Positions 35,325 through 53,480 are shown, counted from the stretch's first letter. The stretch: DNA of 64,000 nt from an uncultured Planctomycetales bacterium (GCA_964467905.1 CAYXSY010000005.1:9800-73799); one strand, 5' to 3'. Program-made: numbers and translations. The notes: generated by a model not told the origin, from the letters alone.

Positions 35325-35352
35325 TTGACAAATGATACTATTATGGTATCAT
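35325..35352 (+). promoter_or_regulatory. candidate promoter TTGACA-N16-TATCAT with an embedded palindrome (atgatac-N7-gtatcat)
   Basis: ttgaca lies at 35325-35330 and tatcat at 35347-35352. The spacer and -10 region form an inverted repeat, a possible operator. A second TTGACA-N16-TAAATT lies at 35291-35318. Confidence 0.45.
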
Positions 35353-35622: not shown

Positions 35623-36033
35623 GTGAAATTAATAACTAGAGATACAGATTATGCTTTACGGGCTATATGCTATATAGCTAAACAGGGTAAAAGAAGGGTG
35701 CCGACCTCTGAATTGGTGCAGAAGCTAAAAATGCCGCGGTCTTTTCTACGTAAGGCCCTTCAAATGCTAGATAAAAAAGGTTTACTTCGTTCTTATAAAG
35801 GTACGGGTGGAGGTTTTGTTATATCTAAGAATACCCGTAATATAAGGTTACTTGATTTAATGGAAGCATTCCAGGGGCCATTGAGCTTAAATGAGTGCTC
35901 TTTTAAAAAGAAGAAATGTCCCGAACAGATAAATTGTCCTTTAAGAAAAAAAATAAACGCATTGGAAGCTTATATTATTTCCCAGCTACGCGATGTAAGT
36001 ATAGCTTCCTTATTAGTTCAAGCAGGAGGTTAG
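35623..36033 (+). CDS. Rrf2 family transcriptional regulator (NsrR/IscR-like, three-Cys cluster site)
   Basis: It has a winged-helix N-terminus (KLITRDTDYALRAICYIAK) and three C-terminal Cys residues (NECSFKKKKCPEQINC). It uses a GTG start behind an AGGAGG and is the first gene of the hcp cluster. Confidence 0.85.
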   Translation: MKLITRDTDYALRAICYIAKQGKRRVPTSELVQKLKMPRSFLRKALQMLDKKGLLRSYKGTGGGFVISKNTRNIRLLDLMEAFQGPLSLNECSFKKKKCPEQINCPLRKKINALEAYIISQLRDVSIASLLVQAGG

Positions 36034-36034: not shown

Positions 36035-36868
36035 TTGGAGAAAAGAAGTATCATAAGTATAGACCATAATAAATGTAATGGCTGCGGTTTATGTATCCCA
36101 AACTGTCCGGAAGGCGCTATCCAGATTATAGATAAAAAGGCGCATCTGGTTAGTGACTTATTTTGTGACGGCCTAGGCGCTTGTATCGGGCATTGCCCGC
36201 AAGGTGCAATTACTATTGAAGAGAGGCCTGCCCAGGAGTATAGCGAGAAGAAAGTCATGGAGAATATTGTAAAGCACGGTAAAAACGTTATCTTAGCCCA
36301 CCTCAAGCATCTTAAAGACCATAAACAGAACGAATACTTAAAACAGGCTTTGGGATATTTAAAAGAGAATAATATAGACATTAATATAGAAAACAATTCA
36401 GATGCTAATGTGCACGTTCATGGCGGTTGCCCGGGATCTAAAATAATGGACTTAAGGAACCATAAAAAAGCCGAAGTTGCGAGGGGTGTTATGGATCAGG
36501 CTTCGCAATTAGGGCAGTGGCCTGTACAGCTTAAGCTTGTGCCTGTTTTGGCTCCTTATTTTGAGAATGCCGACCTTTTAATCGCAGCCGATTGCGTTCC
36601 TTTCGCGTATGCAGATTTTCACCAGCGGTTGCTTAAAGGAAAGATTTTGCTTGTTGGTTGCCCCAAATTAGATGATCTGGATTCTTATAAGGATAAAATT
36701 ACGCAGATTATAAAGAACAATAAGATACGCTCCGTTGTTTACGCGCATATGGAAGTACCTTGTTGTTTTGGTTTATTACCGATAATCAAAGAGGCTATTG
36801 CATCAACAGATAAAAACATTATCTTTTCTGAAGTTAATATTAGTATTACGGGAGAAAAGATTATATGA
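36035..36868 (+). CDS. 4Fe-4S dicluster domain protein with an uncharacterised C-terminal domain
   Basis: Two ferredoxin motifs are present (CNGCGLCIPNCP and CDGLGACIGHCP). It uses a TTG start 5 nt after an AGGAGG. The C-terminal half contains CVPF...GCPKLDD...VPCCFG. Confidence 0.7.
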   Translation: MEKRSIISIDHNKCNGCGLCIPNCPEGAIQIIDKKAHLVSDLFCDGLGACIGHCPQGAITIEERPAQEYSEKKVMENIVKHGKNVILAHLKHLKDHKQNEYLKQALGYLKENNIDINIENNSDANVHVHGGCPGSKIMDLRNHKKAEVARGVMDQASQLGQWPVQLKLVPVLAPYFENADLLIAADCVPFAYADFHQRLLKGKILLVGCPKLDDLDSYKDKITQIIKNNKIRSVVYAHMEVPCCFGLLPIIKEAIASTDKNIIFSEVNISITGEKII

Positions 36869-37101
36869 GCCAAAAATGCCCCGGACAGGATTCAAGGAAT
36901 ATAAAGGCAGAGAGTATTATTTGTAGTGTATGCGGCTATGAAATAGAAATATTCTCTGATGAGCTAAAGATAAAGTGTCCGAGATGTAAGAGCTTGGCGT
37001 GTCGAGAACTGCTGCCTTCTTGTGTGGCCTGGTGCAAGGCGGCCAAGGATTGTGTGGGTATGGAGAAATGGAAACAATTAAGGAGTTCTGCTACGCTCTA
37101 A
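36865..37101 (+). CDS. small Cys-rich zinc-ribbon protein
   Basis: A 78-aa protein with CSVCG...CPRC plus four further Cys residues. It overlaps the upstream stop by 4 nt. Confidence 0.55.
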   Translation: MSQKCPGQDSRNIKAESIICSVCGYEIEIFSDELKIKCPRCKSLACRELLPSCVAWCKAAKDCVGMEKWKQLRSSATL

Positions 37102-37222
37102 GACATACAAATAATATGGTAGAGCTACGCAGAAACTATTGAATTCCTTCGAAGCCCTACCGTTTGATAGCAAAGTTTAAGGGCGTAGGAGAAATGGAAA
37201 CAGTTAAAAGGAGGATAAAAAT

Positions 37223-38515
37223 ATGTTTTGTTATCAGTGTGAACAAACAGCAGGCGGAAGCGGTTGCACAAAATTAGGTGTTTGCGGCAAGAATGAGGAT
37301 GTCCAAAGCTTGCAGGATTTATTATTATTTGGATTAAAAGGTATTGCTGCTTATGCGTATCATGCCCGCGAACTCGGTGCGCGCGATGAGGAAGTGGATA
37401 GTTTTATGCATGAAGCGCTTTTCAAAACGGTAACTAATGTGAGTTTTGATTTGAGCCAGCATCTTGATTTAGTCTTGAAGTGTGGCAGAGTTAATCTAAA
37501 AACTATGGAGCTTTTGGATAAGGCTCATACCGAGCGTTTCGGCAACCCTATTCCTACTCAGGTTTATATGGGTACCAAGAAGGGGCCGGGTATCCTTGTT
37601 ACAGGGCATGATTTGTTAGATTTATACGAGTTGCTTAAGCAGACTGAAGGCACGGGGATAAATATTTATACCCATTCAGAGATGTTGCCCGCACACGGAT
37701 ATCCTAAGCTCAAATCTTTTAAGCACCTGGTTGGAAATTACGGCGGTGCCTGGCAGGAGCAGAAGAAAGAATTCAATGAATTCAGCGGAGCGATACTAGC
37801 GACTACTAACTGCGTTTTAATCCCACCGGCAAATACTTATTTAGATAGGTTATTTACTATAGGTATTACCGGCGTTCCGGGAGCCGCTCATATTAAAAAC
37901 CGTGATTTTAAAGCCATTATTGAAAAAGCAAAATCATTGCCTTCTCTACAGGAGGTACCGGGTAAAACAATAATGACTGGTTTCCACCATGCGGCGATTC
38001 TTTCTTTGGCTGATAAAATCGTAGGGTTGGTAAAATCAGGTAAAATAAGGCATTTCTTTCTTATCGGCGGTTGTGATGGCGCAAAGCCGGGAAGAAACTA
38101 TTATACGGAGTTTGCAGAGCTTGTGCCTAAGGATTGTATAATTCTTACCCTTGCATGTGGTAAATACCGTTTTAATAAGCTTGATTTCGGAGAAATTGAA
38201 GGAATTCCGCGCTTATTGGATATTGGTCAGTGCAACAATGCCTATTCGGCAATACAGGTGGCCTTAGCGCTATCCAAGGTATTTAATTGTAGCGTCAATG
38301 ATCTGCCATTAACTTTGGTTTTATCATGGTTTGAGCAGAAGGCGGTGGCAATACTTTTGACATTGCTTGCTCTGGATATAAAAAACATACGTATTGGGCC
38401 TACTCCACCGGCATTCATCAGCCCGGGAGTATTTAAGGTTATCCAGGAGAGATACGGGTTAAAGTTAATCACTACGCCGAAGGATGACTTGGCAGATATT
38501 CTAAAGACAAAGTAA
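37223..38515 (+). CDS. hcp: hybrid cluster protein (hydroxylamine reductase), short form
   Basis: The N-terminus MFCYQCEQTAGGSGCTKLGVCGK is the Hcp cubane-binding motif. Downstream blocks are GHDL, NYGGAWQ, LATTNC, GGCDG, ACGKYRF and GQCNNAYSA. At 430 aa it is shorter than the ~550-aa classical forms. Confidence 0.9.
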   Translation: MFCYQCEQTAGGSGCTKLGVCGKNEDVQSLQDLLLFGLKGIAAYAYHARELGARDEEVDSFMHEALFKTVTNVSFDLSQHLDLVLKCGRVNLKTMELLDKAHTERFGNPIPTQVYMGTKKGPGILVTGHDLLDLYELLKQTEGTGINIYTHSEMLPAHGYPKLKSFKHLVGNYGGAWQEQKKEFNEFSGAILATTNCVLIPPANTYLDRLFTIGITGVPGAAHIKNRDFKAIIEKAKSLPSLQEVPGKTIMTGFHHAAILSLADKIVGLVKSGKIRHFFLIGGCDGAKPGRNYYTEFAELVPKDCIILTLACGKYRFNKLDFGEIEGIPRLLDIGQCNNAYSAIQVALALSKVFNCSVNDLPLTLVLSWFEQKAVAILLTLLALDIKNIRIGPTPPAFISPGVFKVIQERYGLKLITTPKDDLADILKTK

Positions 38516-38558
38516 GGAGTATGTAGTAAAATATAATAGAGAGAGGGAGCCAAATATA

Positions 38559-39428
38559 ATGCTGGATGGCAAGATAAAGAGCAGGATTTTAGAGGCTCAA
38601 AAGAATGAGATTACAGAGCATTTTATTTATGCTAGACTTTCTAGCTTGCTTAAAGATAGAGAGAAAGCAGCTATTCTTAAACAGATATCCGAAGAAGAAT
38701 TAAAGCATTATGAGCTTTGGAAGACGTTTAGCGCAGAAGACGTTGCGCCGGATAAGGGTAAGGTTTTCTTTTACGTTTGGCTAGCAAGATTATTCGGCCT
38801 GACTTTTGGTTTAAAGTTGATGGAGTCAGGTGAGGACTCGGCGCAGGATGTATACGAGAAGCTTAAAGTTATAAGCCCACAGGTAGATAAGATTATTGCT
38901 GATGAAAATGCGCATGAGAATCAACTCATCGGCTTAATAGATGAGGAGCGGTTAAAGTATGTAAGCTCTGTAGTCTTAGGGCTGAATGATGCCTTAGTTG
39001 AGCTAACGGGTGCTCTTGTAGGATTTACCCTTGCTTTGCAGAATGCGCGCCTGGTGAGTATAGTCGGTTTAATCACTGGTATTGCTGCATCATTATCCAT
39101 GGCTGCTTCAGAATATTTATCTACCCGCCAGGAAGATACAGGTAAGGATCCAGTTAAGGCCTGCATATATACCGGTATTGCCTATGTTGGCACAGTTATT
39201 GTTCTGGTAAGCCCATATTTTATTTTTAAGAATATTTATTTGGCTTTAAGCCTTGTGTTGCTCGCTGCAGTTTCAATAATTTATATTTTTACTTATTATA
39301 TTTCTGTGGCCAAAGAGCTGAACTTTAAGAAGAGGTTTTTGGAGATGGCCGGGATTAGCTTAGGGATTGCTGCCATTAATTTTTGCATAGGTTTAGCTGT
39401 AAGAAAAGTTTTTGGTATCGATGTATAA
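38559..39428 (+). CDS. ferritin-like (rubrerythrin-type) domain fused to a VIT1/CCC1 iron transporter domain
   Basis: The N-terminal four-helix-bundle motifs are EITEHFIY, EEELKHYELW and ADENAHENQL. The C-terminal VIT1 pattern reads VVLGLNDALVELTGALVG...SMAASEYLS and is followed by TM helices. Confidence 0.8.
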   Translation: MLDGKIKSRILEAQKNEITEHFIYARLSSLLKDREKAAILKQISEEELKHYELWKTFSAEDVAPDKGKVFFYVWLARLFGLTFGLKLMESGEDSAQDVYEKLKVISPQVDKIIADENAHENQLIGLIDEERLKYVSSVVLGLNDALVELTGALVGFTLALQNARLVSIVGLITGIAASLSMAASEYLSTRQEDTGKDPVKACIYTGIAYVGTVIVLVSPYFIFKNIYLALSLVLLAAVSIIYIFTYYISVAKELNFKKRFLEMAGISLGIAAINFCIGLAVRKVFGIDV

Positions 39429-39445
39429 AAGAAAGGGGGGGGCAT

Positions 39446-39508
39446 ATGAGTTGCGGAAGATGTGGGGCAAAGAAACCTAAGAAAAAAGGCAAGAAGAAAA
39501 AGAAGTAG
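39446..39508 (+). CDS. 20-aa small ORF MSCGRCGAKKPKKKGKKKKK preceded by a G8 Shine-Dalgarno
   Basis: A G8 run at 39435-39442 lies 3 nt upstream of the ATG at 39446, and a TAG lies at 39506-39508. The peptide has a CxxC followed by a poly-Lys tail. It is out of frame with the track's GTG 39462 korA start. Confidence 0.35.
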   Translation: MSCGRCGAKKPKKKGKKKKK

Positions 39509-39572
39509 ATTTATAATCTGGCGGCAGGGTGCTATGCGCTCTGCCGCTTTAATATTTCAGAAAATTAAAGAA

Positions 39573-41240
39573 ATGGATAATTTTTCTGTTTTAATCGCGG
39601 GTAAGGCCGGATTCGGGATAGACAGGTCAGGTAGCATAATTGGTAGGTTGCTTGCCGGAGCCGGACGCCATATCTATATATATAGGGATTATCCTTCTAT
39701 TATAAGGGGCGGTCACACATTTTCAATCATAAGGGCTTCTTTAGAAAAGAGATTAGCTTGTTTAAATAAGATAGATTTTCTTTTAGCGCTGGATCAGGAA
39801 GCCTTTGATTTGCATAAAGAGAGAATAAAGGATACAACCGTTATTATTTATGATAGCGATATCGTAGAGATAAGCGGGTTTGATGGAAACAAGAAAATAG
39901 CCATCCCTATATCTTCTGTTGTCAAAGAAGAGAATGCTCCTGAGATAATGCGTAATAGTTCTATTGTGGCGGCATTCTGTCACGTAATCGGGTTGCCTTG
40001 GGAAAACCTGGAAAAAGTTTTACATAAAGAATTCTCTTCGGCTTTAGAAATAAACCTTAAGGTCGCACGCCGTGGGTGGGATGCTTCTCAGGAGCTACAA
40101 AAAATAGGTATTTTAAATCCCAATACTTCTCCTCTTATAACGGGGAATGAAGCTATCGCTTTGGGATTAGCTAACGGTGGGTTGCAGGAATACATTGCTT
40201 ATCCTATGACGCCGTCTTCTCCGGTATTGCATTTTTTGGCACAACATGCGCAAAAATTATCTATAAACGTTACGCATCCGGAGAGCGAAATTGCAGTCGT
40301 ACTTATGGGATTAGGTTTTGCTTATTCAGGCAAAAGGGCAGCAGTAGGAACTTCCGGAGGGGGGTTTTGTTTAATGACTGAAGGCTTAAGCTTCGCGGGG
40401 ATGGCGGAGCTGCCTTTAGTTTTTGTCTTGGGGCAAAGGCCCGGACCAAGCACAGGCCTGCCTACATATTCTGCCCAAACAGAATTGTTTTTTGCTCTAT
40501 ATGCCGGCCAGGGTGAATTTGCGCGCCTTGTAGTTGCCCCCGGAGATCTGGAAGAATCATATTTCTGGTCTACGGTTGCCATGAATATGAGTTGGAAATA
40601 TCAGATTCCCAGCATTATTCTAACTGATAAGAATTTAGGAGAAGGAGTTTTAAACTTTGATATTAATTCCGTAGATACTATAAACCGGGAAGAGTTGTCA
40701 GTATACAAAGGCACAAGGCCTTATAAAAGATACGCCTTTAGTGATACAGGAATTTCTCCTTTGGCATTTGCACCGTATCCGGGCATAACCATTAAAGTAA
40801 ATAGCTACGAGCATGATGAATATGGTATTACTACCGAAGACCCCGGGATTACGATGTTAATGCAGGAAAAGCGTCTGCGCAAAGAGAATCATCTAAGAGA
40901 AGAGCTTAAGAATTATCAACAGGTTAATATTTACGGCAATCAAGAAAGTCCCATTGCGTTGCTTTGCTGGGGGTCTAATAAAGGCGTTTGCCTTGAAGTA
41001 GCCGAGCGTCTCAAGCTTAAGGTCATTCAGCCGGTAGTACTTTGGCCTTTTCCTCAGGAAGAGTTTACTAAGGATGTGTTGGGGGCAAAGAGAATAATCT
41101 GTGTAGAGAATAACGCCACTGCCCAGTTGGCCCAGTTGGTTAATATGCACGGCATTAAAGTAGACGAGAAGATTTTAAAATATGACGGAAGGGCATTTTT
41201 TGTAGATGAGTTAGAGGAGAGGATAAAAAAGATTATATGA
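39573..41240 (+). CDS. korA: 2-oxoacid:ferredoxin oxidoreductase alpha subunit with a fused N-terminal gamma domain
   Basis: The gamma-like block is LIAGKAGFGIDRSGSIIG...YPSIIRGGHT. The alpha block is GNEAIALGLANGGLQEYIAYPMTPSS. The start is uncertain (39534 or 39573). I consider the track start at 39462 unlikely. Confidence 0.8.
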   Translation: MDNFSVLIAGKAGFGIDRSGSIIGRLLAGAGRHIYIYRDYPSIIRGGHTFSIIRASLEKRLACLNKIDFLLALDQEAFDLHKERIKDTTVIIYDSDIVEISGFDGNKKIAIPISSVVKEENAPEIMRNSSIVAAFCHVIGLPWENLEKVLHKEFSSALEINLKVARRGWDASQELQKIGILNPNTSPLITGNEAIALGLANGGLQEYIAYPMTPSSPVLHFLAQHAQKLSINVTHPESEIAVVLMGLGFAYSGKRAAVGTSGGGFCLMTEGLSFAGMAELPLVFVLGQRPGPSTGLPTYSAQTELFFALYAGQGEFARLVVAPGDLEESYFWSTVAMNMSWKYQIPSIILTDKNLGEGVLNFDINSVDTINREELSVYKGTRPYKRYAFSDTGISPLAFAPYPGITIKVNSYEHDEYGITTEDPGITMLMQEKRLRKENHLREELKNYQQVNIYGNQESPIALLCWGSNKGVCLEVAERLKLKVIQPVVLWPFPQEEFTKDVLGAKRIICVENNATAQLAQLVNMHGIKVDEKILKYDGRAFFVDELEERIKKII

Positions 41241-42091
41241 GCGATATATTGAAGCTTGAAACATCCGCTAAGAATACATGGTGCCCGGGCTGCGGGAATT
41301 TTGCCATACTAAATGCAATAAAGGCGGTGTTGCAGGATTTGCATAAAGAGGGTACGCAAATAGAGAATGTAGTGTTAGTTTCTGGCATTGGCTGCCATGC
41401 GAAAATCGTTGATTACATAAATGTTAACAGTTTTTATTCTATACACGGCAGGGTTGTGCCGGTAGCTGAGGCAATAAAAATGGCTTCTCCTGAAGTTAAG
41501 GTTATTGGTTTTGCAGGAGACGGCGATGCTTACGGGGAAGGTATGGAACATCTTATATTCGCTGCTAAGCGCAATATAGATATTACCATGATCATACATG
41601 ATAACCGGGTATATGGACTGACTACCGGCCAATATACCCCTACATCGCCGTTGGGTTTCCGTGGCCGCTCAACTCCTTTAGGCACAAAAGAAGCTCCCTT
41701 AAATCCTTTGGAGGTAATGTTTTCAGCGGGCGCTACTTTTATCGGCCGCGGCACATCACACGGCATCGATTTATTAAAGACTTTATTCAGACAGGCAATT
41801 TTACATAAAGGTTTTTCTCTGGTAGATGTATTGCAGGTATGCGTTACTTATTATAATATGTATGAATATTACGATAAGCGGGTTTATGAGCTAAAAGGGC
41901 ATGACCCTGAAGATTACAATCAGGCCTTGCTAAAGATAAGGGAATGGGATTATAATATTGACAGTAGAATAGCTCTAGGTTTGTTGTATAATAAAGACGC
42001 CCCCGCCTTTGAAAGACAAGCCTTTCAGGAGCGTATATTAGCTTCCGAATGCAACACAAAAATAAAAGAGCTGCTGCAGGGTTTAGTTTAA
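41237..42091 (+). CDS. korB: 2-oxoacid:ferredoxin oxidoreductase beta (TPP-binding) subunit
   Basis: The motifs WCPGCGNFAIL, GIGCH, GDGDAYGEG and DNRVYGLTTGQ are present. The start overlaps the korA stop. Confidence 0.9.
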   Translation: MSDILKLETSAKNTWCPGCGNFAILNAIKAVLQDLHKEGTQIENVVLVSGIGCHAKIVDYINVNSFYSIHGRVVPVAEAIKMASPEVKVIGFAGDGDAYGEGMEHLIFAAKRNIDITMIIHDNRVYGLTTGQYTPTSPLGFRGRSTPLGTKEAPLNPLEVMFSAGATFIGRGTSHGIDLLKTLFRQAILHKGFSLVDVLQVCVTYYNMYEYYDKRVYELKGHDPEDYNQALLKIREWDYNIDSRIALGLLYNKDAPAFERQAFQERILASECNTKIKELLQGLV

Positions 42092-42122
42092 ACCAGGATT
42101 TCATCAATAGAAGGAGATAGCT

Positions 42123-42281
42123 ATGGAAAAATACAGATGTACGGTTTGTGGTTATGTTTATGATCCGGCAGTAGGCGACCCGGATCACGGGGTAAATGCC
42201 GGGACTAAATTCGTAGATTTGCCTGCGGATTGGGTTTGTCCGGAATGCGGCGTGGGTAAAGACATGTTCGAGAAGGTTTAA
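42123..42281 (+). CDS. rub: rubredoxin (52 aa; below the ORF-track cutoff)
   Basis: The sequence [52 protein letters not shown] carries both CxxCG knuckles. An RBS (aaggag) is present. The stop overlaps the next ATG (TAATG). Confidence 0.95.
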
Positions 42282-43147
42282 TGATTATGAGCAGACAAGT
42301 TAAATTTAAAGGCTCTCCTCTTACTTTGGTTGGCAGATATTTAAGCCGGGGAATAGTGGCTCCGGATTTTAAGGTTATATCGGCTGAATTAAAAGAAGTT
42401 TGTTTATCAGAGTTTAAGGATAAAATCAAGATTGTAAACTTTTTCCCTTCCCTTGATACGCCGGTATGCGATTTGCAGGTAAAGGAATTTAATAAGAAAG
42501 CAGCCGGTATTTCTGCGGATATAGTTGTAATCGGAATAAGCAAAGATTTACCTTTTGCCCAGGCAAGATTCTGCCATGAAAACGAAATTAAGAATGAGTT
42601 AGTATTTTCAGATTATAGATATTCTTCCTTTGGCATCAACTACGGAGTTTTAATTAAAGAACTTAATCTTCTCGCACGCGGAGTAGTTATTATCGACAGT
42701 AATAACATTTTAAGATACATCCAAATAGTAGATGAAGTAACGAATGCGGTTAATTATGAGCAAGCACTTAAAGAGCTGGAGGCTGTAATTAGTGCCACAG
42801 CGTCTTTAAGGCCACAAGAAGAGCTGTCTTCTCACTGCAAGCCTTGCGAAGGGCAAGTTGCTTCTTTGCCTCAAGATAAGATCAATAGATTAATCGCCGC
42901 CTACCGCGGTTGGGAACTTATTGACGGTAAAAAAATAGTGAAGGAATTTAAGTTTAAAGATTTTATCGAGGCAAAATATTTTATCGATCTTATTTCGGTT
43001 ATCGCTGAAGAGCAAGGGCATCACCCTACCATAACCGTAATTTATAATAAAGTCAGGCTAACGCTTAGCACTCACGCAGCAGGAGGCCTGACTGATAACG
43101 ATTTTATTATGGCTAAATTAATTGATGGATTAGGATATGCCGGTTAA
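42281..43147 (+). CDS. fusion protein: thiol peroxidase (Tpx, atypical 2-Cys) + pterin-4a-carbinolamine dehydratase (PCD/DCoH)-like domain
   Basis: The Tpx part is FFPSLDTPVCDLQ (peroxidatic Cys) and ARFCHENEI (resolving Cys). After an ~25-aa linker comes HCKPCEG...YRGWELIDGKKIVKEFKFKDFIEAKYFIDLISVIAEEQGHHPTITVIYNKVRLTLSTHAAGGLTDNDFIMA, a typical PCD. Confidence 0.8.
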   Translation: MIMSRQVKFKGSPLTLVGRYLSRGIVAPDFKVISAELKEVCLSEFKDKIKIVNFFPSLDTPVCDLQVKEFNKKAAGISADIVVIGISKDLPFAQARFCHENEIKNELVFSDYRYSSFGINYGVLIKELNLLARGVVIIDSNNILRYIQIVDEVTNAVNYEQALKELEAVISATASLRPQEELSSHCKPCEGQVASLPQDKINRLIAAYRGWELIDGKKIVKEFKFKDFIEAKYFIDLISVIAEEQGHHPTITVIYNKVRLTLSTHAAGGLTDNDFIMAKLIDGLGYAG

Positions 43148-43841
43148 TCTAGAACTAAGAGTAAAAGAGATAATCCAGCGTACTTATAACGTAAAGAGTT
43201 TCCGTTTAGAGCCAGCCGCTAATATAGATTATAAGGCGGGCCAATTCTTAAGCGTTACATTGAGGAAGGATTCTAATCTAAAGCGTTATTTATCAATATC
43301 CAGTTCGCCTACCGAGAAATGCTACATTGAATTCACCAAAAAGCTTACTAACAGCGATTTTTCTAAGTCTTTGAATGAATTAAAAGCCGGGGATACGGTT
43401 GAAGTTCAGTATCCTATGGGTAATTTTACGCTAAAAGATGGTTTTAACAAAATAGCCTTTATTTCCGGAGGTATCGGCATTACTCCTATTCGTAGCATAG
43501 CCAAGTATGTAGTAGATAATAATATGGGCGTTGATATGATTTTAGTTTATGCCAACCGCTCAATTAAGGATATAGTTTTTAAAGATGATTTCGATTATAT
43601 GCAGAAAGCCTATTCTAAATTAAAGGTTTCGCATGTGTTGTGCGAAGCGGAGCCGGGGTTTAAATGCACCGTAGGATTGATTAACGCAGCGATAATCAAG
43701 AATGAAGTAAGCGATTACCAGCAGCGTAAATTCTATCTCTGTGGCCCTCCAGCGATGGTAGACTCGATGAAAAAAATATTGACTGGGGAGTTAGCGTTAG
43801 CGGAAACAAATATTATCACAGAGAATTTTCAGGGGTATTAA
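43137..43841 (+). CDS. ferredoxin-NADP reductase-type FAD/NAD(P)-binding oxidoreductase (no Fe-S domain)
   Basis: The FAD motif is RYLSISSSP and the NAD(P) motif is FISGGIGITP, with a C-terminal YLCGPPAMV. It overlaps the Tpx-PCD gene by 11 nt. Confidence 0.75.
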   Translation: MPVNLELRVKEIIQRTYNVKSFRLEPAANIDYKAGQFLSVTLRKDSNLKRYLSISSSPTEKCYIEFTKKLTNSDFSKSLNELKAGDTVEVQYPMGNFTLKDGFNKIAFISGGIGITPIRSIAKYVVDNNMGVDMILVYANRSIKDIVFKDDFDYMQKAYSKLKVSHVLCEAEPGFKCTVGLINAAIIKNEVSDYQQRKFYLCGPPAMVDSMKKILTGELALAETNIITENFQGY

Positions 43842-43842
43842 T

Positions 43843-43982
43843 GTTAAATCCTAAATCCGAAATTCTAAACTCTAAACAAATCCAAAATTCCAAATTACAA
43901 ATTCCAAACTATAATGTTTGGAACATTGGAATTTAGGATTTAGAATTTGTTTAGGATTTCGATATTAGGATTTAGAGTTTAA
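43843..43982. repeat. ~135-nt imperfect palindrome made of degenerate AAAYYCY heptamer-like units (largest member of the TTTAGAGTTTA element family)
   Basis: The left arm (43846-43909) reads aaatcct aaatccg aaattct aaactct aaacaaatcc aaaattcc aaattac aaattcc aaac. The centre is tataat. The right arm (43916-43980) is its imperfect reverse complement. The element fills the whole gap between two genes. Confidence 0.8.
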
Positions 43983-43993
43983 GGGAGGTAAAT

Positions 43994-45190
43994 ATGTCTG
44001 TTGTTAAAGTATTACCCGGCATTTACTCAGTAGGCGTAGTGGATTGGAACGTACGTAATTTCCACGGGCATACCTATTCTACAAGCAGGGGGACCACCTA
44101 TAACGCTTACCTGATAGTAGACGAGAAAATAGCTTTGGTCGATACCGTCTTAGGCGCGTTTTCTCATGAGCTCATTGATAATATACGTAAGATTGTCCCG
44201 GTCGAGAAAATAGATTATGTTATTGCCAATCACGTAGAAACCGATCATTCTGGCGCGCTGCCTGCAATTATGAAGTTATGCCCTAAAGCTAAGGTAGTCG
44301 GTACTCAAAAATGCAAAGACGGCCTGTATAAACACTATTATGGTAATTGGGATTTTCAGGTAGTAAAGACAGGTGATCAAATAAAACTGGGCAGGCGTAC
44401 TTTGAATTTTATAGAAGCCCCGATGATACATTGGCCGGATAGCATGTTTACTTATTGCCCCCAAGAGCAGCTTTTGATGCCTAATGATGCTTTCGGGCAG
44501 CATTATGCCACAACCGAGCGTTTTGACGATGAGACTGACCATTGTGCGCTTATGGATGAAGCGGCAAAATATTATGCTAACATTTTATGGCCGCTGGGTT
44601 CGGTTATTTTGAGAAAGATAGAAGAAGTACAGAAGATGAATTTAGCGATTAAAATGATAGCGCCCAGTCACGGGATTATCTGGAGGAAAGACCCGGCCAA
44701 GCCTATAAATTCTTATTTATCCTGGGCTAAGAATACCACTTCACCAAAAGTGGTCATAGTCTATGAGACTATGTGGGGCTCAACAGAGAAGATGGCAAGG
44801 GCGATGCTGGATGGTATAACTGATAGCGGAGTTCAGGCAAAACTTTTTGATATCGCGGTATCTGACCGCACCGAGGTTATAAAAGAAATGCTGGATGCTA
44901 AGGGTTTTATATTCGGATCCTCTACTCATGACAATGATATGTTGCCTAATATTGCGTCTTTTCTTGAGCTTGTAAAGGGTTTGCACACCAAAAACAGGCT
45001 TTCTTGTGTTTTTGGTTCTTTTGGATGGGCAGGCGGTGCTGTGGGAGAGATTGAGGGGCTGCTTAAGGAAAGTGGCATAGAGGTAGCGCAGGCAGGATTG
45101 GGCATAAAGTATGTCCCCGATGTTAATGAACTTAAAAGTTGCTATGATTTCGGCAAGAGTTTTGCCGAAAGGATAAAAGGAGGTAAATGA
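43994..45190 (+). CDS. fprA: flavodiiron protein (FprA / rubredoxin:oxygen oxidoreductase type A)
   Basis: A metallo-beta-lactamase-like domain carries NHVETDHSGA. The C-terminal flavodoxin domain reads VVIVYETMWGSTEKMA. Confidence 0.9.
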   Translation: MSVVKVLPGIYSVGVVDWNVRNFHGHTYSTSRGTTYNAYLIVDEKIALVDTVLGAFSHELIDNIRKIVPVEKIDYVIANHVETDHSGALPAIMKLCPKAKVVGTQKCKDGLYKHYYGNWDFQVVKTGDQIKLGRRTLNFIEAPMIHWPDSMFTYCPQEQLLMPNDAFGQHYATTERFDDETDHCALMDEAAKYYANILWPLGSVILRKIEEVQKMNLAIKMIAPSHGIIWRKDPAKPINSYLSWAKNTTSPKVVIVYETMWGSTEKMARAMLDGITDSGVQAKLFDIAVSDRTEVIKEMLDAKGFIFGSSTHDNDMLPNIASFLELVKGLHTKNRLSCVFGSFGWAGGAVGEIEGLLKESGIEVAQAGLGIKYVPDVNELKSCYDFGKSFAERIKGGK

Positions 45191-45585
45191 TGGCAGAACT
45201 TAAAGATTTATTGCAAAGCGCAGACTGGAAAACCGAGAAGCATGTGCCTGTAATTGATGCCCCGGATGAGGCTAAGAAAGGCGAGTGGATCAAGGTCGCC
45301 TTGAGCGTAGGCAAAGAAATACCACATCCTAATACAACCGCACACCACATACGTTGGGTTGCATTACATTTTCTTGCTGATGGCGAGAAATTTCCATATG
45401 AGATAGCCAGAGTTGAATTTAGCTCACACGGTGAATCAACCCAGGGGCCTGATACTAGTACTGTTTTTACGCATCCTTTAGCCGCTGTAAATTTCAAAAC
45501 CGATAAACCGGGAACGATTTTTGCTGCCTCATATTGCAATATCCATGGGTTTTGGCAAAACAGTAAAAAAATATCTATAAAGTAA
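45187..45585 (+). CDS. sor: superoxide reductase, 1Fe neelaredoxin type
   Basis: The motifs EKHVPVI, HPNTTAHHIRW and the Cys/His ligand motif YCNIHGFW are present. There is no N-terminal desulforedoxin domain. Confidence 0.9.
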   Translation: MMAELKDLLQSADWKTEKHVPVIDAPDEAKKGEWIKVALSVGKEIPHPNTTAHHIRWVALHFLADGEKFPYEIARVEFSSHGESTQGPDTSTVFTHPLAAVNFKTDKPGTIFAASYCNIHGFWQNSKKISIK

Positions 45586-46043
45586 TGAACCTACCTAAAC
45601 AGGCAATAGATTTCTTTCGTAACCAGGGCTGTGTAATTGTTTCTACCTTGGATAAGAACGGTTACCCGCACAGCGCTTGTAAGGGGATTGTAAAGATTGA
45701 ACCCGAAGGGCGGGTTTATCTACTGGATATTTACAAAGCTGTAACCCACGCTAACTTAATCCGTAATGCATCTTTTAGCATTACCGCTGTTGATGAGCAT
45801 AAATTTAGCGGATACTGTTTAAAGGGCAAGGCTAGAATCATTAAAGCCGAAGAGTTAAGCCCGGATATTATCAAAGCTTGGGAGGACAGGGTTACTTCTA
45901 GGATAACCCAGAGGATGGTAAAGAATATATTGGATAAAAAGGGGCATCCTAAACACCCAGAAGCCCTTTTCCCTAAACCTAAATATATGATTGTTATGGA
46001 CGTGGAAGAGGCGGTGGATTTGACGCCACCTCATCTTAAGTAA
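45585..46043 (+). CDS. pyridoxamine 5'-phosphate oxidase-like FMN-binding split-barrel protein
   Basis: A 152-aa protein with the pattern FFRNQGCVIVSTLDKNGYPHSACKG...SFSITAVD, typical of the PNPOx-like family. It sits within the O2-stress cluster. Confidence 0.6.
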   Translation: MNLPKQAIDFFRNQGCVIVSTLDKNGYPHSACKGIVKIEPEGRVYLLDIYKAVTHANLIRNASFSITAVDEHKFSGYCLKGKARIIKAEELSPDIIKAWEDRVTSRITQRMVKNILDKKGHPKHPEALFPKPKYMIVMDVEEAVDLTPPHLK

Positions 46044-46051
46044 ATGAAGCC

Positions 46052-46078
46052 CGAACTTATTGAGCGAACATAAGTTCG
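46052..46078 (+). terminator. hairpin after the PNPOx-like gene (weak terminator candidate)
   Basis: cgaacttat (46052-46060) pairs with ataagttcg (46070-46078) across a 9-nt loop. No strong T-tract follows. Confidence 0.3.
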
Positions 46079-46151
46079 TTGGCTGAATTTACCTCGCTAT
46101 TTTGGGTTGATAATTTTTCTAAAATGACGGGTTTTATCAAAGGAGGTTTTT

Positions 46152-46628
46152 ATGGGTAATATATTTGCCGCAAGCGAGGTCGTGGAGTTAGGGGTGCAGA
46201 TTGAAAAGAACGGCCGTGATTTCTATAATACCTTGGTTACTCAGGCCTATGACCAGAGATCGAAAGACCTTTTTCAATATTTAGCTAAGGAAGAGGAAAA
46301 GCATATTGTAGTTTTTCAGAAAATTCTTGGTACACTTGATAAATACGAGCCTCCGCAGGTTTATGCAGATGATTATATGGCCTATATGAAGTCTTTGGCA
46401 GGAGAACATATTTTTACTCAAGCTAACAAGGGGGTAGAAATAGCCAAGAAAGTAAAAAGCGAGAGAGAGGCAGTGGATTTAGGCATAAAATTTGAGCAGG
46501 ATTCCATAGTTTTTTATGAGGGGATGAAGAAGGTGGTCCCGGAATTTGACCAAAAGGCAGTTAATGAGCTGATCGCGCAGGAAGAATTACATTTGAAAAA
46601 GCTACTTGAAATAAAGAGCGCTTTATAG
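46152..46628 (+). CDS. rubrerythrin-family ferritin-like diiron protein (no rubredoxin domain)
   Basis: Two E...ExxH pairs are present (EKNG...EEEKH and FEQDS...QEELH). An RBS (aaaggagg) precedes the start. Confidence 0.75.
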   Translation: MGNIFAASEVVELGVQIEKNGRDFYNTLVTQAYDQRSKDLFQYLAKEEEKHIVVFQKILGTLDKYEPPQVYADDYMAYMKSLAGEHIFTQANKGVEIAKKVKSEREAVDLGIKFEQDSIVFYEGMKKVVPEFDQKAVNELIAQEELHLKKLLEIKSAL

Positions 46629-46637
46629 GGAGGAACC

Positions 46638-46874
46638 ATGGCTAAAAGTGTTAAGGTTTATAGTACGCCGACTTGTCCGTATTGCATAAGAGTGAAACAA
46701 TTCCTCAATGATAATAATATAGCATTCGAAAATTATGATGTTTCAGCTGATCAGGCTAAAGCCGAAGAGATGATTCAAAAGACCGGCCAGATGGGCGTGC
46801 CGGTGATTGATATTGAGGGAGAGCTGATTGTAGGTTTTGATAAGGAAAAGATAAAGCAATCTTTAGGAATATAA
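46638..46874 (+). CDS. glutaredoxin-like protein (NrdH/YruB type)
   Basis: A 78-aa thioredoxin fold with CPYC and GVPVI motifs. It lies directly upstream of a thioredoxin-reductase-like gene. Confidence 0.85.
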   Translation: MAKSVKVYSTPTCPYCIRVKQFLNDNNIAFENYDVSADQAKAEEMIQKTGQMGVPVIDIEGELIVGFDKEKIKQSLGI

Positions 46875-46875
46875 A

Positions 46876-46952
46876 TTACATAATTAGTAATCGGTAATCA
46901 GTAAATAGTAATCCGTAATTCAAAACAAAAATTACCGATTACGAATTACGAA
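46876..46952. repeat. heptamer-built imperfect inverted repeat (AATNNGT units, then complementary ACNNATT units)
   Basis: The left arm reads aattagt aatcggt aatcagt aaatagt aatccgt aattc. The centre is aaaacaaaa. The right arm reads attaccg attacg aattacg aaaacg. The architecture matches the 43843 element but the unit sequence differs. Confidence 0.7.
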
Positions 46953-46957
46953 AACGT

Positions 46958-47863
46958 ATGTATGACCTTATTATAATTGGTGCTGGGCCGGCAGGGATTA
47001 CGGCAGCTGTGTATGCTGCGCGCAAGAAATTGAATATTCTTGTTATCAGCCGTGACATCGGCGGACAGGCTGCCTGGAGCGGTGATATTGAGAATTATAC
47101 CGGATATCAATTTATTACCGGTCTGGAGCTGGCAGCTAAGTTTGAAGAGCATATGCGTAAATACGGTATTGCCCTGAAGGAAAATGAAGCAGTTATAGAT
47201 TTAAGTAATAAACCCGAAGTACAAACAGTCAAAACGGATAAAGGTATTTATGAATCACGAGCGGTTATTGTCGCTTCAGGCAAGCGTTCGCGAGAGCTGG
47301 GGGTACCGGGTGAAAAAGAGTTTAAAAATAAAGGGCTTACTTATTGCGCTACTTGTGACGGGCCGTTGTTTTCGGGAAAGGATGTTGCGGTTATCGGCGG
47401 AGGAAATTCTGCTCTTGATGCCGCTTTGCAGCTTGTGCGTATAGCCAATAAGGTTTATATTATAAACATAGCCGCGCATTTGTCTGGCGATGAAATTATG
47501 CTTGAGAAACTCAATAGTAGTTCCAATGTTAAAATCTATAATGAATCTCAGGTGAGTGCAATCTTAGGTGATAAAATGGTTACAGGCCTTAAATTTAGGC
47601 ATGGTCAGAAAGAAGAGTTGCTTTCTGTAGCAGGGATTTTTGTCGAGGTAGGTCTTATGCCTAATTCTGAATTCGCGCGCATTATTGATAGAAACGAACG
47701 CCAGGAGATAAAGGTAAATTCCTACAATGAGACGAATATCCCGGGTATATTTGCCTCCGGAGATGTTACTGATGTACCGGAAAAACAAATAATCATCGCC
47801 GCCGGAGAAGGCTCAAAAGCCGCATTAAGCGCTTTCCGCTATCTATCTTCCCACAAATTTTAA
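46958..47863 (+). CDS. trxB: thioredoxin-disulfide reductase family flavoprotein
   Basis: The motifs IIIGAGPAGITAAVYAAR, the redox-active CATCDG, VIGGGNSALDAA and GIFASGDV are present. Confidence 0.9.
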   Translation: MYDLIIIGAGPAGITAAVYAARKKLNILVISRDIGGQAAWSGDIENYTGYQFITGLELAAKFEEHMRKYGIALKENEAVIDLSNKPEVQTVKTDKGIYESRAVIVASGKRSRELGVPGEKEFKNKGLTYCATCDGPLFSGKDVAVIGGGNSALDAALQLVRIANKVYIINIAAHLSGDEIMLEKLNSSSNVKIYNESQVSAILGDKMVTGLKFRHGQKEELLSVAGIFVEVGLMPNSEFARIIDRNERQEIKVNSYNETNIPGIFASGDVTDVPEKQIIIAAGEGSKAALSAFRYLSSHKF

Positions 47864-50416: not shown

Positions 50417-50427
50417 ATCTACATAAA

Positions 50428-50522
50428 ATACGGGGAGGTCGTATATACGGCCTGAGAGTTTCGTTTGTTCCAAACGAATTACCCGAAGAACCTGATCTGG
50501 ATAATGCCAGCGGAGGGAGAGG
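50428..50522 (+). promoter_or_regulatory. TPP (THI-box) riboswitch aptamer
   Basis: It contains the conserved CUGAGA (50452-50457) and ACCUGAUCUGGAUAAUGCCAGCG (50490-50512), with a P3 hairpin tttcgtttg/caaacgaa. It lies upstream of a thi4 gene. Confidence 0.9.
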
Positions 50523-50534
50523 AGGTTGAATTAT

Positions 50535-50567
50535 AAGCTCTTATGCGCTAGGCATAAGAGCTTTTTG
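50535..50567 (+). terminator. intrinsic terminator forming the riboswitch expression platform
   Basis: A 12-bp stem pairs aagctcttatgc (50535-50546) with gcataagagctt (50552-50563), followed by ttttg. Confidence 0.8.
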
Positions 50568-50666
50568 CTGTAGTAGGCAGCACACCAGCGCATCATTTAG
50601 CGCCGGGTGTATATTGCTCTTATGGTTGTTATCCTCTTTGGGCAACATAACAACAGGAGGATAAAT

Positions 50667-51467
50667 ATGTTTAGTAGTATAAAAGAAGCGCAAATCAGCC
50701 GGGCGATTGTCGGTGAGTTTAGTAAATGGTTTGAGGATTATATCATTTGCGATGTGATTATTGTTGGCGGCGGGCCAAGCGGATTGATGGCAGCTAGAGA
50801 TTTGGCCAGCAGTGGATTAAAAACGCTGGTTATCGAAAGCAACAATTATATCGGAGGCGGTTTTTGGGTAGGGGGTTATTTTATGAATACCCTGACTTTT
50901 CGCTCTCCGGCAGAAGAGATCCTGGACGAGCTGAGTATCCCATATAGAGAATTAGAGAAAGGTCTTCTGGTTGCTGATGGGCCGAGTGCTTGCTCTAAGC
51001 TTATTTTTGAAGCTTGCCAAGCAGGGGTTAAAATATTAAATCTTACCAAATTTGACGATGTCATCTTGCGGAACAAGCGTGTGGAAGGAGCAGTTATCAA
51101 TTGGGCCGCAGTTTCTGCTTTGCCACGGCAAATTACCTGTGTTGACCCTATTGCTATTGAATCCAAGATAGTAATTGATGCTACTGGACATGACGCTTGG
51201 GTAGCCAGGAGCCTGGAGAAGAGGGGTTTGTTAAAGATACAACATTTTGGACCTATGGATGTTAATTCTTCAGAGGATGCAGTGGTAGAAATGACAGGAG
51301 AGATTTTCCCGGGATTGTTGGTTTGCGGAATGAGTGCAGCTACAGCTTATGGTTTGCCACGCATGGGCCCGACCTTCTCTGGCATGCTTTATTCAGGAAG
51401 AAAGGCAGCTAAAGTAGCAATGGGTATTCTTGAAAAGAAGTCCGAATTAATCGGCAGCCTATCTTAG
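50667..51467 (+). CDS. thi4: thiazole synthase Thi4 family, second divergent paralogue (riboswitch-controlled)
   Basis: The motifs DVIIVGGGPSGLMAARDL, GGGFWVGG, VIDATGHDAWV and LPRMGPTFSGMLYSG are present. A strong RBS (caggagg) serves the ATG at 50667. The track GTG at 50607 lies in the leader. Confidence 0.85.
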   Translation: MFSSIKEAQISRAIVGEFSKWFEDYIICDVIIVGGGPSGLMAARDLASSGLKTLVIESNNYIGGGFWVGGYFMNTLTFRSPAEEILDELSIPYRELEKGLLVADGPSACSKLIFEACQAGVKILNLTKFDDVILRNKRVEGAVINWAAVSALPRQITCVDPIAIESKIVIDATGHDAWVARSLEKRGLLKIQHFGPMDVNSSEDAVVEMTGEIFPGLLVCGMSAATAYGLPRMGPTFSGMLYSGRKAAKVAMGILEKKSELIGSLS

Positions 51468-51482
51468 GTAATCTGATTTTAG

Positions 51483-51524
51483 AACCTGTGTCTTGAGATA
51501 ACAGGTCTTGAGGCACAGGTTTTA
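51483..51524 (+). terminator. terminator candidate after thi4-2
   Basis: aacctgtg (51483-51490) pairs with cacaggtt (51514-51521), followed by tttaa. The loop contains a direct repeat of gtcttgag and an alternative inner stem. Confidence 0.45.
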
Positions 51525-51578
51525 ATAGACAAACTTGGTTAAAAAGTGATAAAATATAGTCTTTAAGGAGAAACAAAG

Positions 51579-52772: not shown

Positions 52773-52781
52773 AAGGCATAT

Positions 52782-53393: not shown

Positions 53394-53427
53394 CTTTCTA
53401 GTGGCAAACCTCTTTTTTAAAAAAACC

Positions 53428-53457
53428 TTGACATAGGGTAGGGGGGTATGGTATATT
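53428..53457 (+). promoter_or_regulatory. promoter TTGACA-N18-TATATT with an embedded G-tract CsoR-type operator candidate
   Basis: ttgaca lies at 53428-53433 and tatatt at 53452-53457. The spacer ATAGGGTAGGGGGGTATGGTA resembles, from memory, the GC-rich pseudo-palindromic CsoR boxes (TACCC-N-GGGGGTA). Confidence 0.5.
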
Positions 53458-53480
53458 GCATGGTGGAGGTTAAAAGAACT

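Follow-up and report, generated by a model that had tools for sequence, protein, structure and literature searches.

A candidate FNR-superfamily NADH:rubredoxin oxidoreductase in a conserved stress operon of Omnitrophota

We analysed a stretch of 64,000 nucleotides from an uncultured Planctomycetales bacterium (GCA_964467905.1, CAYXSY010000005.1:9800-73799); this whole stretch is referred to as the window. It contains an island of genes for the detoxification of O2 and reactive oxygen species, which includes the gene of a 234-aa flavoprotein of the FNR superfamily (the FNR-like protein, 43137-43841). An earlier note on this DNA had suggested that the protein may be a different class of NAD(P)H:rubredoxin oxidoreductase. 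The suggestion is partly supported: the order of genes in related species, the absence of a canonical NAD(P)H:rubredoxin oxidoreductase (NROR) nearby, displacement among reductases in sister operons and one natural fusion speak for it. Judging from sequence, we think it reasonably probable that the FNR-like protein is the physiological point at which electrons from NAD(P)H enter rubredoxin. The assignment of the island to defence against O2 and reactive oxygen species also stands, and we add the detoxification of NO to it.

Rubredoxin-dependent detoxification of O2, NO and superoxide is the main oxidative defence of strict anaerobes. To our knowledge, the entry of NAD(P)H electrons into rubredoxin has until now been attributed to a single family, NROR, or to fused forms of it. 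A canonical NROR is a Pyr_redox_2 flavoprotein of about 380-400 aa that has two dinucleotide-binding domains and a C-terminal Rubredoxin_C domain; the FNR-like protein matches neither Pyr_redox_2 nor Rubredoxin_C (PF18267). In the established chain, electrons pass from NAD(P)H to NROR, from there to rubredoxin and on to a flavodiiron protein (FDP) (PMC6033852). A rubredoxin domain has also been reduced in vitro by an FNR-type enzyme (PMC6697814), which makes an FNR-like rubredoxin reductase biochemically plausible. In our literature search, no paper turned up that deals with rubredoxin reductases of the FNR fold in anaerobes or with the rubredoxin systems of Omnitrophota.

The FNR-like protein had been described as a 234-aa FAD/NAD(P) reductase with an FNR-type fold and no Fe-S domain. 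This architecture is confirmed by Pfam (FAD_binding_6, PF00970, 43.1 bits, cut-off 21.1; NAD_binding_1, PF00175, 70.9 bits, cut-off 22), by the alignment of homologues and by a structural model. The AlphaFold (AF2) model has a pLDDT of 89.7 and the FNR-superfamily fold. Its top Foldseek match is the NADH-cytochrome b5 reductase of Physarum, 2eix (E 5e-20, 28% identity), which phmmer also finds (9e-23), followed by NqrF FAD domains, GcoB, human CYB5R3 and Fre; TM is ~0.8 for the matches to b5 reductase, NqrF and Fre. The protein is a member of the FNR superfamily, with cytochrome b5 reductase as its closest relative. The label "plant-type" that it had been given is imprecise; closest to the protein are cytochrome b5 reductase and modules of the Fre, NqrF and Hmp type. 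Among 20 homologues, the motifs GGIGITP and CGPPAM do not vary. At the FAD motif the sequence is R50-Y-L-S (RYLSISS), with Leu at the usual Tyr/Phe position, and the C-terminus, which ends in TENFQGY, has no Cys cluster. In the alignment with b5 reductases, the Asp that is conserved in NADH-specific enzymes corresponds to D145 (LVYANRSIKD versus LIFANVNEDD), and from this we infer a preference for NADH. Besides the Cys of CGPP, C62, C169 and C177 are invariant or nearly so across the 20 homologues. The computed pI is basic for the FNR-like protein (8.9) and acidic for the rubredoxin (4.5).

We also considered whether the protein is a member of a known family with the same module. It scores far below the curated NCBIfam cut-offs for Hcr, Fre, PyrK and AsrB. 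PyrK or a sulfite-reductase subunit had been named in the earlier note as identities that would speak against a new class; these are ruled out by the scores (PyrK, 67.2 bits versus 224; AsrB, 62.7 versus 288.6) and by the missing 2Fe-2S Cys cluster. Hcr is rejected at 107.3 bits versus 383, with model positions 11-238 of 333 aligned and no Fe-S domain, and Fre and LuxG at 94.1 versus 230 and 77.4 versus 340 bits, respectively. An NCBI/Logan protein matches the sequence at 100% identity, and the closest relatives that bear a name come without exception from Omnitrophota. We assign the window to a metagenome-assembled genome of Candidatus Omnitrophota, an uncultured anaerobe.

To place the gene in context, one genome per GTDB species was scanned. 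This yielded 80 loci (designated L and a number), of which 74 hold a close member of the FNR-like family (54-71% identity); nearly all of these 74 are labelled Omnitrophota. Neighbouring genes were annotated using the window's own proteins, and the absences of genes from the resulting counts are mostly at contig ends.

In the window, 42123-47863 holds nine + strand genes, as established by Pfam and NCBIfam searches and translations, and their positions and domain contents agree with those reported before. The count of eleven genes does not hold; one arrives at eleven only if KorA and KorB, upstream of 42123, are counted in. It is true that all are on the same strand, but this is not distinctive, as nearly every gene of the window is on the + strand. 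The island also reaches about 6.8 kb further upstream, to a promoter-operator and an Rrf2 gene, so that the whole of it spans 35325-47863, with up to 16 genes behind one conserved promoter-operator. Its features are as follows, with the number of the 74 loci in which a gene is found.

35325..35352, + strand: sigma-70-like promoter, TTGACA, 16-nt spacer, TATCAT, extended -10 (TG); 11 of 12 positions match
35623..36033, + strand: Rrf2-family regulator, first gene of the island; Pfam Rrf2 (PF02082) 100.9 bits; 59/74
36035..36868, + strand: ferredoxin-like protein, N-terminal 2x[4Fe-4S] and AF_0155-type domain (PF27217 in orthologues); 30/74
36865..37101, + strand: Cys-rich open reading frame (ORF) between the ferredoxin-like gene and Hcp, 78 aa, 10 Cys
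37223..38515, + strand: Hcp (hybrid-cluster protein of the prismane family, short 430-aa form); Pfam Prismane 465 bits; 51/74
38559..39428, + strand: erythrin-VIT1 (MbfA-like) iron exporter, ferritin-like domain with two ExxH, then VIT1 membrane domain; 3/74
39534-41240 (public gene call; the ORF opens at 39462), + strand: KorA, 2-oxoacid:ferredoxin oxidoreductase subunit; KorAB 4/74
41237-42091, + strand: KorB, 2-oxoacid:ferredoxin oxidoreductase subunit, ending 31 nt upstream of rubredoxin
42123..42281, + strand: rubredoxin, 52 aa, pI 4.5; NF045768 95.5 bits (cut-off 90), Pfam 89 bits; 68/74
42281..43147 (public call starts at 42287), + strand: fusion of thiol peroxidase (Tpx) and pterin-4a-carbinolamine dehydratase (PCD), NF001808 and NF002017; 11-nt overlap with the next gene; Tpx 40/74, 19 of them fused to PCD
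43137..43841, + strand: FNR-like flavoprotein, 234 aa, pI 8.9, FAD_binding_6 and NAD_binding_1; candidate NADH:rubredoxin oxidoreductase
43994..45190, + strand: class A FDP, 398 aa, PF19583 and PF00258, no further domain, HVETDH; 66/74
45187..45585, + strand: 1Fe superoxide reductase (SOR), neelaredoxin type; Pfam Desulfoferrodox 106 bits, TIGR00332 97.2 bits (cut-off 61.9); 45/74
45585..46043, + strand: PNPOx-like FMN-binding split-barrel protein; Pfam PNPOx_N 39.9 bits; 55/74, directly after FDP
46152..46628, + strand: rubrerythrin-like diiron four-helix-bundle protein; Pfam Rubrerythrin 36 bits; 17/74
46638..46874, + strand: YruB/Cp9-type glutaredoxin-like protein (Grx); TIGR02196 100 bits (cut-off 88.55), CPYC; 54/74
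46958..47863, + strand: low-molecular-weight thioredoxin reductase (TrxR)/AhpF-like flavoprotein, CATC, nearest to the AhpF C-terminal module; 50/74

In the rubredoxin, both CxxCG and CPxCG are intact, and the protein qualifies as a member of its family. The FDP consists of a metallo-beta-lactamase-like diiron domain and a flavodoxin domain, as in class A; its score of 484 bits against the flavorubredoxin equivalog cut-off of 635 is as expected for an FDP without a rubredoxin domain. The SOR motifs EKHVP, HPx4H and CNIHG are intact, and the SOR is assigned to the 1Fe type because it has a single Cys; this type is defined by a ferrous-iron domain with His4Cys ligands that lacks an N-terminal desulforedoxin domain, and the full-length desulfoferrodoxin model gives 37 bits versus a cut-off of 147. 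The rubrerythrin-like protein has two ExxH, zero Cys and no rubredoxin domain, and its nearest PDB entry is 1vjx (TM1526). For the PNPOx-like protein, no PDB relative was found by sequence.

Across relatives the usual order is Rrf2, ferredoxin-like protein, Hcp, SOR, rubredoxin, Tpx or Tpx-PCD (not always present), FNR-like protein and FDP, and then the PNPOx-like protein, in some cases the rubrerythrin-like protein, Grx and TrxR. In 70 related loci, a median of 25 nt separates the FNR-like gene from FDP, which accommodates a ribosome-binding site only; the gap is 152 nt here. A second Omnitrophota subfamily of FNR-like proteins (236 aa, ~37% identical) occurs in the same kind of Rrf2-headed island. 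In one locus of this subfamily (L087) the FNR-like gene is directly beside FDP and rubredoxin, and in another (L088) FDP is about 7 kb downstream and no rubredoxin was called. The context of distant homologues (L080, L082; Bathyarchaeia and others) was uninformative, with unrelated housekeeping neighbours.

The island encodes no NAD(P)H-dependent flavoenzyme apart from the FNR-like protein and TrxR, which is specific to thiols, and the class A FDP and the 1Fe-SOR need an external one-electron donor, which together support a role as reductase. A search for canonical NROR covered the window and 80 flanks of about 20 kb; TrxR apart, it found no Pyr_redox_2 paralogue, either in the window or, for the 80 loci, up to 10 kb from the FNR-like gene.

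We then exploited a metagenome scan anchored on FDP, in which 36 loci with readable flanks were kept. The FNR-like protein is beside FDP in 8 of these, seven with rubredoxin. Canonical NROR (Pyr_redox_2 and Rubredoxin_C by Pfam) takes this place in three (L109, L112 and L156), all with rubredoxin; in L109 the FDP is 69% identical to that of the window, and the operon consists of KorAB, FDP, rubredoxin, NROR and rubrerythrin. A fusion of Flavin_Reduct and rubredoxin (Hrb-type) is beside FDP in a further 3/36, and three more were found in short loci. KorAB alone is beside FDP in five loci, and the remaining 17/36, mostly with distant FDPs, have no recognisable partner. The FNR-like protein never occurs together with NROR or Hrb in the FDP-anchored loci, and no locus has two of these three partners. 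Such mutual exclusion, a non-orthologous displacement, supports the reading of the FNR-like protein as a candidate reductase. The Hrb-type fusions beside FDP in uncultured relatives, which correspond to the high-molecular-weight rubredoxin of Moorella, are in L160 (6261-6947), L148, L116, L102, L101 and L142. In addition, one natural fusion of rubredoxin to an FNR-like protein was found (P0186, 295 aa), which is weak support for the same role.

It is important to consider the observations that weigh against this role. A canonical NROR may be encoded elsewhere in the genome, outside the window. Neither rubredoxin nor FDP is a neighbour of the homologues at 47-50% identity, so the family as a whole is not dedicated to rubredoxin, and four loci (L063, L073, L074, L078) have the FNR-like gene without detectable rubredoxin or outside an island. 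The displacement counts are small (8, 3 and 3). The fusion P0186 is a singleton on a 1.4-kb contig with unrelated context, and could be an artefact of assembly or stop loss. In the protein itself, the flavin-stacking Tyr of RxYS is replaced (RYLSISS). In about one locus in four, the FNR-like gene has PCD directly upstream, often with an overlap, which suggests another possible partner, and the conserved PNPOx-like flavoprotein has no place in the scheme that we propose below.

The alternative that survives best, although we regard it as unlikely, is that the FNR-like protein is a Fre-type NAD(P)H:flavin or ferric reductase, which would act through free flavin or by direct reduction of the FDP or the rubrerythrin-like diiron protein, with rubredoxin not its physiological acceptor. 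Its length and architecture are those of E. coli Fre (alignment to PRK08051 over 4-230 of 233; 1qfj, TM 0.78-0.81), and the loci L074 and L078 have the FNR-like gene and no detectable rubredoxin. Furthermore, a rubrerythrin-like protein without a rubredoxin domain, ferriperoxin, is reduced directly by FNR in Hydrogenobacter (PMC3317640). However, the Fre score of 94 bits is far under the cut-off of 230, rubredoxin accompanies the gene in 68 of the 74 loci versus 17 for the rubrerythrin-like protein, and the replacements seen in sister operons are specific to rubredoxin (NROR with Rubredoxin_C, and rubredoxin fusions).

A second alternative takes its cue from the overlap of PCD with the FNR-like gene, which is 11 nt here and 20 nt in L087, where PCD stands alone (6667-7020) and overlaps the FNR-like gene of the other subfamily. 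The FNR-like protein could be a quinonoid-dihydropterin reductase that, with PCD and Tpx, repairs reduced pterin damaged by O2. In this route, which we consider quite improbable, Tpx would convert the 4a-hydroperoxide to the 4a-carbinolamine, PCD would convert this to the quinonoid dihydropterin, and the FNR-like protein would regenerate the tetrahydropterin. The PCD domain scores above its NCBIfam equivalog cut-off, its residues EEQGHHP...Y...H...D agree with the catalytic motif of PCD, and fusions of Tpx to PCD occur widely in Omnitrophota. It also counts in favour that E. coli Hmp has an FNR-like module with dihydropteridine reductase activity. On the other hand, PCD is found in 19/74 and Tpx in 40/74 loci, while the FNR-like protein stays with rubredoxin and FDP in nearly all of them, and in many loci rubredoxin directly adjoins the FNR-like gene with no PCD. 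The adjacency of PCD could also follow from insertion of Tpx between rubredoxin and the FNR-like gene.

It is similarly improbable, in our estimate, that rubredoxin is reduced by KorAB, from 2-oxoacids, or by an NROR elsewhere, and that the FNR-like protein has an unrelated redox role under stress. KorB ends 31 nt upstream of rubredoxin, and pyruvate:ferredoxin oxidoreductase reduces rubredoxin in Chlorobaculum. KorAB occurs in just 4 of the 74 loci anchored on the FNR-like gene, and so cannot be a general donor, yet it is recurrent by FDP and rubredoxin, including the five FDP-anchored loci without another reductase nearby. Where the FNR-like protein or NROR is present, KorAB can be found together with it and excludes neither, and this alternative does not account for the coupling of the FNR-like gene to FDP, which is nearly universal. 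KorAB, made of a fused gamma-alpha subunit and a beta subunit with no delta ferredoxin subunit, is directly beside FDP and rubredoxin genes in several lineages (L096, L102, L109, L115, L150, L162 and L168). Such recurrence could reflect a direct input from 2-oxoacids to rubredoxin or an O2-tolerant replacement enzyme used under stress.

Finally, it is very unlikely that the FNR-like protein is an Hcr-type NADH reductase of the island's Hcp: although Hcr is its best NCBIfam match (PRK10684, E 7e-31), Hcp occurs in 51/74 loci and the FNR-like gene directly follows Hcp in L088, the score is 107 bits versus 383 with the defining 2Fe-2S domain missing, the FNR-like protein stays with rubredoxin and FDP where Hcp is lacking (L009, L010, L014, L017 and L049), SOR, rubredoxin and Tpx usually lie between the two genes, and Hcp has its own adjacent ferredoxin-like gene.

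We return to the FNR-like protein as candidate rubredoxin reductase. From gene content, motifs, fold, synteny, promoter-operator and displacement we infer a scheme of electron transfer and regulation in which an Rrf2-controlled operon encodes an iron-flavin arm and a thiol arm; taken as a whole, the scheme seems to us fairly likely. In the iron-flavin arm, NADH would reduce the FAD of the FNR-like flavoprotein, which would pass electrons one at a time to rubredoxin. Rubredoxin would then serve the class A FDP, which would reduce O2 or NO to H2O or N2O, the 1Fe-SOR, which would reduce superoxide to H2O2, and possibly the rubrerythrin-like protein as a peroxidase. Rubredoxin would act as a detachable one-electron centre in the role that a fused 2Fe-2S domain has in the related Hcr, BenC and MmoC. 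In this genome, KorAB just upstream may provide a second input, from 2-oxoacids. In the thiol arm, by analogy to the Cp34/Cp9/Cp20 system, electrons would pass from NAD(P)H to the TrxR/AhpF-like protein, to the YruB-type Grx, to Tpx and to peroxides. As accessory functions, Hcp and a ferredoxin-like partner would deal with NO or hydroxylamine, and the erythrin-VIT1 protein would export iron. The ferredoxin-like protein is a likely electron donor for Hcp. ORFs of 75-89 aa are found in L005, L087 and L088 at the position equivalent to that of the Cys-rich ORF.

Both halves of the Tpx-PCD fusion qualify as members of their families. The Tpx half (residues 5-167) is of the atypical 2-Cys type with peroxidatic and resolving Cys intact (NF001808, 178.1 bits, cut-off 123), and the PCD half spans residues 194-284 (NF002017, 84.7 bits, cut-off 80). 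Among the best 120 matches (90%-identity clusters), all have both domains, every source name is Omnitrophota, and the annotation is "thiol peroxidase" only. Our literature search found no paper on Tpx-PCD fusions. The fusion may link the reduction of peroxides to the repair of oxidised reduced pterins. A wider proposal, about which we are of two minds and on balance slightly doubtful, is that in Omnitrophota an unrecognised 26-kDa, b5-reductase-like NADH:rubredoxin oxidoreductase of the FNR superfamily has displaced NROR at the start of the rubredoxin-FDP-SOR chain, and that Tpx-PCD possibly repairs O2-damaged pterins, maybe via the same reductase.

The TrxR-like protein falls short of both TIGR01292 (289.9 bits versus 343.45) and AhpF, which has in addition an N-terminal double thioredoxin fold (337 versus 502.9, C-terminal module only). 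Since the redox disulfide CATC is present, we describe it as a TrxR-like enzyme of the Cp34/AhpF-C type rather than as a typed TrxB, and by analogy it is the probable reductase of the Grx-like protein. TIGR02196, the family of the Grx-like protein, is that of the YruB/Cp9 type. The model for this arm is the NADH peroxidase system of Clostridium pasteurianum, in which Cp34 (TrxR-like), Cp9 (Grx-like) and Cp20 (peroxiredoxin) are linked to a rubredoxin locus (PMC3720550). The two systems share a YruB-family Grx followed by an AhpF-like TrxR, a clustered peroxiredoxin and a rubredoxin nearby. They differ in that the peroxiredoxin here is a Tpx fused to PCD and not an AhpC-type Prx, and in that genes for rubredoxin-dependent enzymes separate Tpx from Grx and TrxR.

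The promoter upstream of the Rrf2 gene is overlapped by a perfect palindrome, ATGATAC-N7-GTATCAT (35332-35352), which occurs once in perfect form in the window. In 51 of 56 loci from related species, the composite CTTGACAAA-ATGATAC-N7-GTATCAT lies upstream of the Rrf2 gene; each locus has about one palindrome, and the median distance from it to the Rrf2 gene is 152 nt. The constancy of promoter and palindrome at 65-70% protein identity implies selection, and we take the promoter to be that of the entire unit and the palindrome to be its probable Rrf2 operator. We searched for a second operator palindrome inside the island and found none. Several genes overlap by 1-11 nt (KorA/KorB, Tpx-PCD/FNR-like, FDP/SOR and SOR/PNPOx), which suggests translational coupling. 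Part of our best explanation is that 35325-47863 would form one conserved, single-promoter stress operon of enzymes that detoxify O2, peroxide and NO.

The Rrf2 regulator has the cysteines C92-x7-C100-x5-C106, and by its domain and these three C-terminal Cys it matches the Fe-S-binding type; it is predicted to be of the NsrR/IscR type. The operon would probably be repressed by this regulator, its own first product, which would bind the palindrome overlapping the -10 element and be freed when O2, NO or reactive oxygen species damage its cluster. The Fe-S Rrf2 regulators NsrR, IscR and RsrR have the same Rrf2 winged-helix domain with three C-terminal Cys, and an equivalent autoregulatory layout, in which a palindromic operator lies over the promoter of NO- or oxidative-stress genes (Hcp, FDP). 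The operator ATGATAC-N7-GTATCAT and the 16-gene regulon differ from these and are specific to Omnitrophota.

The leader that follows the promoter is about 150 nt in relatives and 270 nt here, and a 17-bp stem (35574-35611) lies just 5' of the Rrf2 ribosome-binding site. An Rfam search of the 5' leader, 35100-35700, gave chance-level matches only. A structured element at 35247-35308 (~62-71 nt), between a permease gene and the island promoter, has the form GCAGACGyCCGCC..GGCGG..TTACGTCA..TGACGTAA..TCTGC, with two hairpins inside an outer stem. A similar element occurs in another species (L077, 8571-8641), there between the FNR-like gene and FDP; the element has no Rfam match.

Overall, the island resembles a classical NROR-type rubredoxin defence joined to a thiol system of the Cp34/Cp9 type, with an Rrf2 protein like NsrR/IscR as regulator, and what is distinct is the fold of the putative reductase, the Tpx-PCD fusion and the number of genes, up to 16, behind one promoter-operator. 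The terminal enzymes and the rubredoxin carrier are those of the NROR-rubredoxin-FDP/SOR/rubrerythrin systems of Clostridium acetobutylicum, Desulfovibrio and Pyrococcus, and of NorW-NorV in E. coli. An NAD(P)H flavoprotein is likewise encoded alongside in the operon, and the logic of the chain would be the same (PMC6033852). In contrast to these systems, the flavoprotein is a 26-kDa FNR-superfamily protein, not a ~40-kDa protein of Pyr_redox_2 and Rubredoxin_C, and NROR is not in the island in 74/74 species loci, yet it is at the equivalent place in sister operons.

With cytochrome b5 reductase, Fre, the FAD domain of NqrF and the reductase domain of Hmp, the FNR-like protein shares the two-domain fold, GGxGxxP and CGPxxM. 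It resembles cytochrome b5 reductase also in the Asp that suggests a preference for NADH, and it would likewise pass single electrons to a small, separate metalloprotein. It differs from that enzyme in sequence (28% identity), in having no membrane anchor and no cytochrome b5 partner, in the RYLSISS variant, in the conserved Cys62, Cys169 and Cys177, and in the stress-operon context of an anaerobe. Hcr, BenC, MmoC, PDR, PyrK and AsrB have a homologous FAD/NAD module, and for Hcr there is the further parallel of Hcp in the same island and of the top NCBIfam match. Unlike these proteins, the FNR-like protein has no fused Fe-S domain, and the separate rubredoxin may fill the one-electron role. 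Hrb with FprA in Moorella thermoacetica, and class C/F FDPs, which contain reductase domains of their own, are other wirings from NAD(P)H to FDP; here, by contrast, reductase and rubredoxin are separate and the fold of the reductase is different. The PNPOx-like protein encoded after FDP is only distantly related to the flavin-reductase domain of Hrb.

An NROR with an FNR fold would be plausible rather than shocking to a specialist. If the FNR-like protein does have this function, it would be a fourth wiring solution beside NROR, Hrb-type fusions and self-sufficient FDPs, it would explain how Omnitrophota, a large uncultured phylum, powers its rubredoxin-dependent enzymes, and it would offer a small, easily expressed reductase for reconstituting rubredoxin-dependent systems. 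If it does not reduce rubredoxin, the island would be an anaerobe stress operon of an ordinary kind, though an unusually complete one. With the conserved promoter-operator and the Rrf2 gene, a regulon is defined in a phylum that lacks genetics, and the Tpx-PCD fusion, which is widespread, points to a link between the reduction of peroxides and the chemistry of pterins that is as yet undescribed.

Two heptamer-repeat elements had been noted within the island, and these are indeed present (43845-43981 and 46881-46952). With their flanking positions they are as follows.

43844..43982, no strand assigned: first heptamer palindrome (imperfect), TAAATCC-like units paired with GGATTTA, forming a long hairpin
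46876..46953, no strand assigned: second heptamer inverted repeat, TAATCNG paired with CGATTAC, forming a modest hairpin

The fold of 43842-43988 has a dG of -49.7 kcal/mol (z -7.9) and that of 46875-46957 a dG of -14.6 kcal/mol (z -3.1). The first element ends 5 nt before the FDP ribosome-binding site, and neither element has a T-run. In a 98%-identical strain (L089), the first element has 1-2 substitutions and the second has one. Neither element is at the same junction in other species: the first is absent from the FNR-like/FDP junction in 69 other loci (gap ~25 nt), and L047 has a different heptamer-type insert there. We rejected the elements as terminators or operon dividers, given the lack of a T-run and their absence from the junction in those 69 loci. 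The proposal that they divide the island into three blocks is thus replaced by one of hairpin insertions in otherwise tight junctions; the elements are lineage-specific REP-like (repetitive extragenic palindromic) insertions, which could at most affect the stability of the mRNA or relative expression. A third heptamer-repeat element, with TTTAGGG/TTTAGAG units, is at 9275-9334, downstream of a UvrC-like gene.

The flanks of the island (16929-35167 and 50421-63965) are rich in metal and sulfur genes. They include genes for a CDF transporter (among the few on the - strand), MamN-like and ZupT-like transporters, FeoB, a YHS-domain permease, a CusABC-like RND system, NifS, NifU, CysK, LarE and two sulfide-dependent thiazole synthases, one of which lies behind a TPP (thiamine pyrophosphate) riboswitch at 50421-50535. 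The UvrC-like ORF (8004-9245) encodes 413 aa versus ~600 for a typical UvrC, with its matches falling into two separate stretches. Inside it, on the same strand, ARAGORN finds a 93-nt tRNA-Ser(GGA) at 8595-8687; of these two calls, one is probably spurious, unless the gene is an unusual one.

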